Shown piece after piece: positions 25,860 through 30,361 of a DNA stretch of 64,000 bases. A model generated the notes under the pieces. The model was given only the letters and a program-made list of their open reading frames with translations, was not told the origin of the DNA and did no database searches. The stretch lies in NCBI GenBank assembly GCA_951406725.2, contig OX597837.1:23498001-23562000 (forward strand), given 5' to 3'. The translations under genes were made by a program, and so were the position numbers. The DNA comes from Octopus vulgaris (taxonomy: Eukaryota). How positions within the stretch are numbered: position 1 is the first letter of the stretch; every line of letters begins with the position of its first letter.

Positions 25860-26411
25860 GAGTGAGAGAGCAGTGCATGCCATCAAAGCAACACTGGAGT
25901 AAAATATACAAAGCCCAGTATACCCATCATGACTACCCGTCTGATAAGGGTACACAGGCACATGCATCACAACCATATGTGTGCGACATGGTGAGCTCAT
26001 ATGAAGATAAACAGCACATGACCTTGCAGGTGGGGCCCAGTTAGAATTTTCTTCTGGTTGAGTAGCCCATCCCACTCAAAAGGTCCCTGAATAAGGGTTG
26101 TTTAAGGATGTTGAATGAACCACCCATGTTTCCAAAGGTGACTTATCCAAACCTCCAAGAATATCTTTCAATGCACGGCTATGATGCTCCCCACTACTTC
26201 TGCTTGTGGTCAGAGATGCACATATCGTCAGCCTCTAAGAGACATGCTCATCTGGTTAAGGTCAAACAACTGACAAGCAGATCTGTGGTACTGAGCAGAA
26301 TATTTGCTGTAGCCCATCTTTTATACCAAGACAAAACAATGTACATGATAACACTTCTAATCAGTTAAGATCAGAAGCCATAAGAGTCACTGTCTGGTAC
26401 TGCATCAGGGC
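25860..26411 (-). mobile_element. Family E ~550-bp non-coding element inserted in (AAT)n
   Basis: Highly similar to 32562-33115; both ends abut (ATT)n; no long ORF and no tRNA head recognised. Confidence 0.85.
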
Positions 26412-26510
26412 ATTTATTATTATTATTATTATTATTATTATTATTATTATTATCATTATTATTATTATTATTATTATTATTATTATTATTATTATTATTA
26501 TTATTATTAT

Positions 26511-29500
26511 TCAGTAGTCATACTTTTATCACGGGCTTTCACTGCACAACCGAGTGCAGCTCTGTGTGCCTTGGGTATGTACTGTGGTTTGTTGTAATGC
26601 TCTTATTTTCACTGTATAGAAAGTGTTTTACATAAGATGTGTGTAGTGCCTAGTAGTGCTATTTTCTATATATTATATATACTTGTAAGTCCTGGTGTTT
26701 TGGTTTCGTATTTGTCTGAATATTTTTTATCATACCTAATGCACCTACTATGATAGGAATTGTTACTGTTTTTAGACTTCACTTACAAGTTACCTCTGTT
26801 TCCAGATCTTTGTATTTTGAAAGTTTCTCCATTTTAGAGAAACATTGTCATCTGTTGGTATTGATACATCGATTAGAAAGCATTTTTTTGTTGGTGATCT
26901 CTGACAATTATATCCAGCCTATTGGCCTTAATTTCTCTGTCTGTGTGTATTACCATATCCCAGAGTATGGTTGCTTTCTTATTTTCTGTGACCTCTTCTG
27001 GCATGTACCTATACCATCTTTTTTCTGTTGTTATTCCATAGTGTTGGCATAGCTTCCAGTTTATATAGGTCCCAACTCTGTCGTGTCAGTGAATATATTC
27101 CTTCTTAGCCAGGACTGGGCAGCCAAAGACAATATGATTATTTTTTTCTTCTCCATCACCACATATTCTGAAATTACATGTATTTCTTTTCATAACATGT
27201 TTTTTTGGTAATTTCTTGTGGGAAGGCTGCAAATTAAAAATCCTTCAGTCTCTGCTTTGAGTCCTGAGCTTCTTGGCCATTGTTGGGATTTTGCTTTGTC
27301 TATTGCTGTTCCAGTTTTAGTTTGGATTTCAGTTGTTTTACAGCTTCTGTTGTTTCTTCTTTTTCTTCATAGTTGTTAGGTACTATGAGTTCTCTTTTGT
27401 ATTTGTCAGGTTCCTTAAAAACTGAAAACAGTTTGTCTTGTTCATGCTTTGTAGCTGTTTGTATTAGTTTTGTATGGTGGTTATTTTGTAATAGTTTTCT
27501 AGCTGTATAATGCCTCTACCACCTTCCATACCTTTCTATGTCAGATTTTTGGTGGTGTATCCTGAATCCTGTCATTATTTTTCTTGTTTACCTGTCTATT
27601 TTGATTAGTTCATTTAGAGTCCAGTTAAGAATATTATAGCTGCAACTTATAATTGGGATGGCTGAAGTGTTGATACCTATTATCTTGTTTTTCACATTGA
27701 GCTCTGTTTTCACTATTAATCTAACTCATATATAGTATTCTTTTTTTTATCTTCTCTTTCATTTGTGTATGTTGTATCATATTCATTGATTCCTAAGTAT
27801 TTGTATGTCTTGCTTTGATCTAATTCTCTTATTCCATTTGCTTTATTTAGTGTGATGTTGCTACTCTTAGCTAGTTTTCCCTTTTTCAAGGTTGCTTTGG
27901 CACATTTTTCTAAGCCAAATTTCATGTTTATTTCTTCATTTCTTCAGTAAATCCATGTACTGTCTGTAGTAATGTTTCCAGCTGTTTATCATTTGTAGCA
28001 TACAGTTTTAGATCATCCATATACAAGAGATCGGTGATTGTTTTACCATAACACTTATATACACATTCAGTTGTTTAGCATGTCAGATAAAGGTGTGAGT
28101 GCCAAGCAGAAAAGGTGTGGAGAGGGCGTGTCTCCATGGAATATTCTTCTTCTAGTGGGGATGGCTTTTATCTGGAGCTGTAGCATTGTCTGCCATTTAT
28201 TCATGGAATGTTTTATATATTCTATGATTATTGGTGCTGCCTTGTTCATGGCTAGTGTTTCTAGGGTCCATGTGTGGGGAATACTATCAAAAGCCTTTTG
28301 GTAATCGATCCAAGTCGTACTAAGACCCTTCTTCTTTCAGCAGTTGTCTTCAGTTATGGCTTTATTGATCAGTAGCTGATCTTTACAGCTGTATGATCCC
28401 TTGCAGCATCCCTTCTGCTCTTCTGGAGACAGGTTGCTTTCTTCCAGATGTTTGCCCATTCTCTGCAATATTATTGCAGTAAAGGCTTTGTAAATTATAG
28501 GGAGACAAGTTAATGGTTTGCAATTTTGTGAGTTTGCCATTTCAGTAGATTGGGAATTAGGATAGTTTTCCTTTCTGTGAGCCATCCAGGCACTGCCTCA
28601 GGCTCTGCTAGCATTTCATTAAATTTTTCAGCCAGCGTTTTATGTGTTCCTGTTAGATATTTTAACCAGAAGTGGGGGATCTTGTCATGCCCGGGTACCT
28701 TCCAGTTGCTTAGTTTTTGCAGTGCTTGGGTGATTTCTTCAATTGTTATAGGGGTCCAGAGTTGTTCAGATGCTGTGTTTATTGTTTTGATAGATCTTTC
28801 CTGAGGTTGTTCCTTAACTGACCATATTTCTTTCCAAAATTCTTCCACTTCTTCTGCTGTTGATGCTGCATTGATCTCTATTTTAGTTTTGCTAAGTTCT
28901 TGGTAGAATCTTTTGGGGTTGGAGTTGAACTGTTTGTTTTCAAAGAAATGTTGACGTTTCTCATACCGGCCGATTCTTTGTGATTTGGTGAGGATATCTT
29001 GCTTTAGCTGTTCTTCTACCTCAGATATACTTTACTCTGTGATTTTGTATTTACATAGTATTTTTCTTTCCTTTTTGTTACTTAATAGTGTTGAATGTCT
29101 ACTAGTTTCATTAAGGATTGACAGATCCTTTCCCTTATTTTCTATTTTTCTTCTGGTTATTATTTATCCACGGGGTTTGTTTGGGTGATGATACTCCTGC
29201 CTGGATGGGTTTTGGTGGGTCTCCTACTTCTTTTGTGGCCACAAAGGCTGCTGTATATATTATATCATTTAACCTGGTCATATTGACATTTGGTTCTGTG
29301 GCCATTAGTTCAGTGGTGACCAGATTCATGTTATTTATTATTGATGCTGTTTTATTATCAATTTTAATTTTTGGGGGGTACAATCTGTGATCCATACTGA
29401 GATCTATAGCTCTCACTTCTTTGATTATGCTCATTTTTAGAGTATCATAATCATTAGTTTCACCTTCTCTGTTTCGAGGTTTTAGATTTGTTTTGTATTC

Positions 29501-30361
29501 CCTCCCATTCATATTTTTGTCTGTGGTATTCTGGTTTGGTGCATTTTGCTCATCATTATACATTCCTATGGTCTGAGTTTGTTGTCTTTCATTATTTACT
29601 TCGTATTTTACAATCCCAGTGCTTTTGATATTCTTTGGCATTGCTGTGTGGTTACTATCTATGTTTTCCTGATGTAGTTTTCCTTTTAAGTGTTCTATTT
29701 ATATTTATATTATTTTTTTTTTTTGGTTTGAGAATAAATCTCTGTATGCTAGCTAGTTTATTAGGGTTCATTACTATATTCAAATCTTTATCTAGGTTAT
29801 TTTTCTTCCAGATTTTATTCTCAAAAGGTCCCTGAATAAGGATTGTTTAAGGATGTTGAACAAAACACAAGTTTCCAGAGGTAAATTTTTTTTATTTCTT
29901 TATTGCCCACAAGGGGCTGAACATAGAGGGGGCAAATAAGAACAGACAAAGGGATTAAGTCGATTAGATCGACCCAAGTGCGTAACTGGTACTTAATTTA
30001 TCAACCCTGAAAGGATGAAAGGCAAAGTCAACCTCAGCAGAACTTGAGCTCAGAATGTAACGGCAGACAAAATACCGCTAAGTATTTCACCTGGCGTGCT
30101 AACAACCCCAAAGAATTCTTCTCAACACATGGCTATAATACTCCTACACTTGCTCATGATCAGAGATGTACATATCGTCAGCCACTAAGGGACATGCTCA
30201 ACAGGTTAAGGCCAAGAAAATGACAAGCAAATCTGTGGTAATGAGCAGAATATTTACTGTAGCCCATCTTTTACACCACGACAAAAAAATGTACATGTTA
30301 ATTCTTCCAATCAGTTAAGATCAGAAGCCATGAGAGCCACTGCCTGATATTGCATCAGGAC
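26511..30361 (-). mobile_element. Near full-length decayed R4/Dong-clade non-LTR retrotransposon (RT, CCHC, RLE endonuclease)
   Basis: Minus-strand fragments in order: NWKVPGHDKIPHFWLK; EEQKGCCKGSYSCKDQLLINKAI; WIDYQKAFDSIPH; IFHGDTPSP; LLYMDDLKLYA (~27997-28030); MKFGLEKCAK; RICGDGEE..HIVFGCPVLAKKEYIH*HD (zinc knuckle); WDMVIHTDREIKANRLDIIV..LIDVSIP..KLSKYKDLE (RLE). Frameshifts and stops throughout; ATT repeats on both flanks. Confidence 0.93.
29890..30104 (-). mobile_element. SINE B inserted in the 5' region of the Dong LINE
   Basis: Reverse complement of the family B core and tail, interrupting sequence that is contiguous in family E copies. Confidence 0.8.

Follow-up and report, generated by a model that had tools for sequence, protein, structure and literature searches.

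A probable single fusion between an abundant non-coding repeat and a likely R4/Dong-type LINE in Octopus vulgaris

Non-autonomous elements of the bipartite kind have been traced to several groups of LINEs, and PMC5786205 names no sources for them other than RTE, Ingi, Vingi and R2. Recognition of an element's own 3' UTR is documented for R2 and R1 (PMC3414825), and the Dong element of Bombyx mori self-cleaves at its 5' end (PMC3774820). Octopus genomes have been described as containing Dong-R4 families as well as numerous SINE families without a classification (PMC13282606, PMC9115989, PMC8967140).

In this study a non-coding repeat of 553 nt, designated E, was analysed in a 64 kb stretch of O. 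vulgaris DNA (the window), which holds four copies of it (E0, E1, E2 and E3), one of them abutting a decayed LINE. Like R2 SIDEs and bipartite elements (PMC3414825, PMC5786205), E is short and non-coding, lacks a Pol III head and has retroposon-like junctions. Unlike R2 SIDEs, neither end of E could be traced to the adjoining LINE, and no ribozyme was detected. EhLINE1 of Entamoeba histolytica is a member of the R4 clade. Its partner EhSINE1 resembles E in its length of 500-600 nt, in having no small-RNA head and in being mostly unlike the partner LINE (PMC2996970), although EhSINE1 has a 3' end of ~70 nt in common with EhLINE1, and E has none in common with the LINE of the window. A further difference is that EhSINE1 has no targeted insertion according to PMC1635306, whereas E lies in (AAT)n. 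Dong of B. mori and the Dong-R4 LINEs of octopus (PMC3774820, PMC9115989, PMC13282606) share a reverse transcriptase (RT), a (TAA)n context and C-terminal motifs with the LINE body described here; unlike Dong, the present LINE copy is dead and its own 5' end is missing. In the 5' chimeras of R2 (R2/snU12, Drosophila ambigua, PMC3414825), as here, a LINE of the type with a restriction-like endonuclease is fused, in the sense orientation, to the 5' portion of a repeat or non-coding RNA. In contrast to R2/snU12, the LINE at this locus is likely truncated within its ORF, and the fusion is apparently single-copy.

Composition of the locus

The elements of the locus and the other copies of E are presented in Table 1. 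The neighbourhood is a stack in AAT tails, made up of a LINE scrap, a repeat G, E0, the LINE, E1 and a fragment F1. Stacking is thus the local rule: the tail of the LINE itself holds E1, and the AAT tail of another repeat holds E0. In its repeat content the window resembles an octopus genome. A second LINE-like family, F, likewise starts at AAT arrays.

Table 1. Positions of E copies, the LINE and associated repeats within the 64 kb window
Feature	Position	Strand	Basis or remark
E0, 5' part of E (E ~1-263)	30104..30361	-	blastn
Short AAT-like run upstream of E0			tail of another repeat, G
'SINE B', 5'-truncated abundant SINE inside E0, A-rich tail at its end	29888..30103	-	20 other matches in the window (blastn); skipped by other E contigs
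E0 continued (E 274-338), ending at the fusion point	29820..29882	-	blastn; contigs leaving at 29820
R4/Dong-like LINE body, decayed, with numerous stop codons and frameshifts	26512..29819	-	Pfam RVT_1; tblastn of homologues
LINE RT remnant	28070-28336	-	Pfam RVT_1
LINE 3' UTR	about 26608-26512	-	
(AAT)n tail/target of the LINE, host of E1	26412..26511	-	
E1, full-length E copy, then (AAT)5	25860..26411	-	blastn
E2, full-length E copy	32562..33115	-	92.8% vs E1
Region upstream of E2: first 14-16 nt of E in three short tandem copies, and a long (AAT)n array	33174-33116		
E3, E copy without its first 188 nt (E 189-553), intact 3' end and (AAT)n	50676..51042	+	89.9%

A preliminary description of this DNA had claimed that the segment 29819-30361, minus the SINE insert, matches the 5' part of E, and this was borne out by a blastn search of the window with E1 (26412-25860, minus strand) as the query. 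Positions 1-263 of E1 matched 30362-30104 with 84.1% identity (e-value 2e-74), and positions 274-338 matched 29882-29820 with 87.7% identity (e-value 6e-17). The first 338 nt of E are involved, with a total of 328 aligned nt (84-88%), and the match is far above chance level. The gap between the two blocks (30103-29888) is the SINE piece. The match stops at ...CAGGGACCTTTTGAG (29820), beyond which the LINE runs on in the frame NKIWKK...MNPNKLASIQRFIL. On the side of E, 215 nt more follow after ...CTTTTGAG (29820), up to CTCACTC(AAT)n, which is concordant with the protein-like continuation of the LINE and the ~220 bp specific to E that had been described. The decayed RT-bearing LINE begins at 29819, and the E match and the LINE abut without visible overlap (29820 / 29819-29818). 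The precise start of E that had been reported at the LINE holds for E1 and E2, where it is exactly GCCCTGATGCAGTACC, but not for E0, which starts with GTCCTGATGCAATATC. E0 diverges from E2 by 10% and from E1 by 15.5%.

A Pfam RVT_1 match (e-value 5e-7) was found in one of eight fragments of the LINE. All 10 homologues of at least 1000 aa aligned piecewise along the LINE from 29374 to 26722 (tblastn, best e-value 8e-77), and none of the same 10 matched E. The body therefore has an RT domain and full-length homologues with a single long ORF; an (AAT)n run terminates it, and the (TAA)n target and tail that are a feature of R4/Dong are present. We take it, from its C-terminal motifs, to be of the R4/Dong clade; this label is likely, given the (AAT)n tail and these motifs, the homologues bearing no clade names.

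The position of the junction was projected onto the homologues by ungapped extension, starting in each from the usable match closest to the N terminus. It fell at residues 72-252 in all eight homologues used (8 of the 10), that is 71-251 residues inside their ORFs, and in or beside their conserved N-terminal domain. No Met was found in frame before NKIWKK after the last stop. A profile of 11 N-terminal domains (the named RT homologues being from insects) did not recognise the first 54 residues of the LINE, with 117 of 200 shuffles scoring as well, so the mid-domain position of the junction rests on the ungapped projection. The N-terminal profile of the RT homologues was not detected in any frame of E either. 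Profile searching also returned 36 short fragments (47-178 aa), of which the six looked up were Logan ORFs, and none of the 11 fragments examined extended upstream of the junction. A search of the ESM Atlas with the LINE start gave no usable match, and two other protein-database searches were without matches. The projection suggests that the LINE lost its 5' end within the N-terminal region of its ORF.

The junction in contigs from public runs

Contigs from 4 of 24 listed runs (four organism labels; X2, X3, X6 and X8 included) were aligned to positions 29300-30375 at 80% similarity, leaving out small-share RNA and metagenome runs. Of the difference rows, the joints and the loose ends, 40 of 478, 15 of 347 and 24 of 3413, respectively, were listed, with the SINE dominating, and some were left uncounted. 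Among the rows listed, the majority letter at 29773, 29776, 29780 and 29784 was not that of the window, in 18-63 contigs per site and run, and the majority allele at 29773 accounted for 97.8-99.8% of the aligned depth. The greatest distance of these letters to the aligned end, again among the rows listed, was 46, 43, 39 and 35, respectively, in all four runs. As these four values point to the same position, the LINE-type pieces end at 29818, with 29819 obtained in three X6 rows. To calibrate the distance count, rows 29376 and 30303 were used, as they extend to the ends of the interval 29300-30375; the count is inclusive and refers to the aligned part. Most of the rows 29737-29749 put the end at 29818 in X2 and X3, those of X6 put it at 29819, and the remaining values were shorter. 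The contig-end rows bear on LINE contigs that begin before about 29750. Divergence from the window is roughly 12-17% among the 32 LINE contig pieces listed.

Any LINE copies carrying E upstream should have aligned on through 29820-29868, E being 88% alike there, and even LINE+E contigs broken by the assembler would be expected to reach ~30 letters further. Contigs leaving at 29820 into the 3' half of E itself numbered 299, 371, 219 and 241 in the four runs. From bin 29768-29803 to bin 29840-29875 the summed depth rose 38-, 59-, 27- and 45-fold, and the joints 29868 to ~30104, among the joints listed, show that the SINE insert is missing from other E copies. On this indirect evidence the E/LINE junction is very probably private to this locus. 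The ~330 shared bases would then be ordinary, because a broken copy of the far more abundant E would have been joined to the LINE here only. The reading that we consider probable is that a 3'-broken copy of E was fused once to a likely 5'-truncated R4/Dong-type LINE, and that E is an independent retroposon copied into (AAT)n by the enzyme of an (AAT)n-targeting LINE. An E/LINE chimera had been offered as the second alternative in the preliminary description, and it is supported by the contig ends at 29818-29819 together with the E contigs that leave at 29820.

Nature and mobilisation of E

The abundance of E was expressed as the summed E-bin depth over the depth of a single LINE contig, which was about 45 for both X2 and X3 and about 6.5 for both X6 and X8. 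This gives a copy number of roughly 10^4-10^5, to be read as an order of magnitude, summed depth not being copy number. Four copies per 64 kb agree with this estimate. Exact E patterns were found at no locus in metagenome contigs, prokaryote genomes or viral contigs. A literature search, which included four E motifs, found no description of E, and E is probably present in repeat libraries under an automatic name. Likewise, no literature was found that joins non-autonomous R4-clade/Dong elements with the term SINE, or the name Twocore with octopus.

The intact 3' ends of E all join AATAAT in the phase of the LINE's 3' end (3/3), and the three intact 5' junctions differ from one another. There is no AAT at the break of E3, where the first 188 nt are absent, and each of the three 5' tandem repeats of E2 corresponds to the first 14-16 nt of E. 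This anatomy, drawn from four copies with one broken at each end, points to target-primed reverse transcription, in which the copying of E RNA into (AAT)n would begin at its CTCACTC(AAT)n end. Mobilisation of E by an R4/Dong-type enzyme is somewhat favoured, and E is a plausible non-autonomous element on the machinery of an (AAT)n-targeting LINE, on the basis of its junction anatomy and not of the shared 330 bp. Counting against the use of the LINE's enzyme, E shares nothing with the LINE's 3' UTR, unlike the recognition rule of R2 and R1. The dissimilarity of the two 3' ends had been noted earlier and was confirmed: the last 100 nt of E match the LINE's 3' UTR at chance level, with 239/300 shuffles scoring as well (213/300 in a second comparison for a shared 3' end).

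The idea of a ribozyme was reasonable because Dong of B. mori has a self-cleaving 5' end; a self-cleaving end of the Dong type cannot be sought here, since the LINE copy is without its own 5' end. An HDV descriptor with up to 2 mismatches gave no match in six strands (E0, E1 and E2, both strands), although decayed or divergent folds could escape it. The descriptor recovered a synthetic control, and 7/30 shuffles matched at 2 mismatches. No Rfam ribozyme match (HDV, hammerhead) was found in E. Positions 1-7 and 29-35 of E can pair in the manner of a P1, with one mismatch, but this fold was rejected, as P3 and P1.1 do not form, and the best P1 partner in E is followed by TT, not GG. A CTGACGA core is present at E ~180 in all three scanned copies, without a canonical hammerhead continuation by eye. 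One 5'-end hairpin is common to these three copies. Compared with shuffles, the fold of the first 100 nt had a z of -2.2 in E2, -2.7 in E1 and -1.3 (weak) in E0, and that of the last ~100 nt a z of -1.7 in E2 and -3.3 in E1.

A different origin of E, which we regard as unlikely, would derive it, as a bipartite element without autonomy, from the 5' UTR and 3' UTR of another R4/Dong subfamily that is absent from the window, the fusion still being private. The (AAT)n on both sides of E, in the LINE's sense and phase, the absence of a Pol III head, the structured ends (z to -2.7 at the 5' end and -3.3 at the 3' end) and the start of family F at AAT arrays are all consistent with such a derivation. 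It is opposed by the lack of a parent in the window, where the first and last 100 nt of E had no other convincing match, and none to F1, and by the weak 5' fold of E0 and the HDV descriptor result.

It is slightly less probable still that the sense of E lies on the opposite strand, with a 3' end ...GCATCAGGGC and a (TAT)n tail, and that a Penelope-like element or a different LINE mobilised E. The three repeats of E2 restart at the terminus with a few tail bases, as re-priming predicts, and these short repeats could reflect rounds of priming that were aborted at the 3' end of the RNA. In this orientation E0, broken at its would-be 5' side, would be an antisense copy with a 5' truncation. However, tandem duplications are also seen at R2 5' junctions (PMC3774820), and it is the CTCACTC/AAT junction that is invariant (3/3), whereas the GCCCTG junction is variable. 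E3 has no GCCCTG end and no AAT there, no hammerhead of the kind borne by Penelope pLTRs and retrozymes was found, and a Pfam search of the six frames of E2 returned no match.

The headline claim of the preliminary description, that E is a SIDE-like, internally deleted partner whose 5' 338 nt are the true 5' UTR of the LINE family, now appears very improbable. The two parts do have the same orientation, the 5' end of E is present, the (AAT)n context is common to E and the LINE, and a repeat that outnumbers the LINE would fit a successful parasite. Yet when other copies of the LINE's 5' ORF region were compared with E, as had been proposed, the alignment ended at the junction in all four runs (29818-29819), the LINE-type contigs stopping there without running into E. 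The projection of the junction inside the ORFs of all eight homologues, the lack of similarity of E to the LINE body (13/100 shuffles scoring as well) and to its 3' UTR, and the absence of a detected ribozyme also argue against a 5' UTR.

A conventional tRNA/7SL/5S SINE or a MITE, the least probable origin of all, is suggested by the size of E and by a copy number typical of SINE-rich octopus-type genomes (PMC13282606), but is largely refuted for these E copies, as the tRNA gene scan of the window found none (in line with the earlier remark that E has no recognisable tRNA head), Rfam gave no match near gathering score, the best A box and B box in the first 200 nt of E had 3/12 and 2-3/11 mismatches, and there were no terminal inverted repeats (77/300 shuffles scoring as well).

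Origin and significance of the fusion

For the preferred reading, a single fusion of a 3'-broken E copy with the LINE, two routes were considered. Deletions associated with LINE insertion are a known kind of event. Successive landings of E0 and the LINE in one AAT tail may have been followed by a deletion, either during integration of the LINE or later, that took the last 215 nt of E, the AAT spacer and the 5' end of the LINE; deletion between stacked neighbours requires no special machinery. Alternatively, the reverse transcriptase of the LINE might have jumped from its own RNA onto E RNA. A template jump of this sort, to the 5' portion of a different RNA, is recorded for R2/snU12, with an acceptor stretch of 156 bp (PMC3414825). 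Deletion has a slight edge over the jump, and the ages fit either route, because E0 is 10% from E2 and the LINE contig pieces are ~12-17% from the window. The fusion is routine debris of the AAT pile-up.

As an unclassified repeat in AAT microsatellites, E is of modest importance, in a species for which 893 unclassified SINE families are reported among the recently active ones (PMC13282606), and the lead that remains is the partner of E. There is only a small chance that E is a Pol III-independent, microsatellite-targeted retroposon of 10^4-10^5 copies derived from the two ends of an R4/Dong-clade subfamily, and so an animal R4 counterpart of the R2 SIDEs. If this were true, the fusion would record E RNA used by a Dong reverse transcriptase. 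Should the ends of E be traced to a Dong subfamily, the list of bipartite sources would be extended (no R4-clade source appears in PMC5786205), and the minimal RNA signals for a microsatellite-targeting retrotransposase would be defined.

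Fragments related to the LINE

Contigs from four public sequencing runs were compared with the region around the E/LINE junction (29300-30375). Summed contig depth, which is not a measure of copy number, was about 6- to 60-fold higher at 29732-29803 than over the neighbouring LINE ORF in all four runs, and this raised depth came from a few dozen contigs. The excess likely reflects a younger, more abundant LINE subfamily with the same N-terminal motif as the main LINE, the decayed R4/Dong-like element.

The LINE scrap combines 28747-28710 and 27442-27403 of the main LINE, which lie approximately 1270 nt apart in that element; where the two pieces meet, they overlap by 2 nt. 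The scrap is an internally deleted relic, and an AAT array follows it.

Family F reads as a LINE-like C-terminus (…LKTARIIRRVL), distinct from that of the main LINE. The C-termini of five homologues (long proteins matching the main LINE) gave weak tblastn matches to it (E 0.01-0.03). Both fragments are directly preceded by an (AAT)n array and followed by a SINE.

Other repeats in the window

Repeats and fragments in the window
Feature	Coordinates	Strand	Remarks
Family F, two fragments	25836-25686; 31744-31593	-	89% identical
LINE scrap, ~78 nt	31024-30947	-	Two parts of main LINE joined
Repeat G, copy 1	30721-30376	-	
Repeat G, copy 2	9078-8559		
SINE B array	40272-41106		Tandem; four ~217 nt copies
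61 nt array	14173-15090		Tandem
69 nt array	46300-46781		Tandem
Inverted-arm element	32530-32180		~105 nt arms, 32422-32530 and 32180-32285
Short repeats	33174-33116	-	Three tandem copies of first 14-16 nt of E, in front of E2

Copy 1 of repeat G ends in ...GGCAGAGGT, then AAT, and its tail holds E0, the 5' part of the non-coding repeat E that is fused to the main LINE. The inverted-arm element, flanked on both sides by AAT arrays, is MITE- or foldback-like.

Short repeats before E2

Each short copy in front of E2, a full-length E copy, carries a few AAT-like bases. These tandem copies bear on the orientation of E and on RT behaviour.
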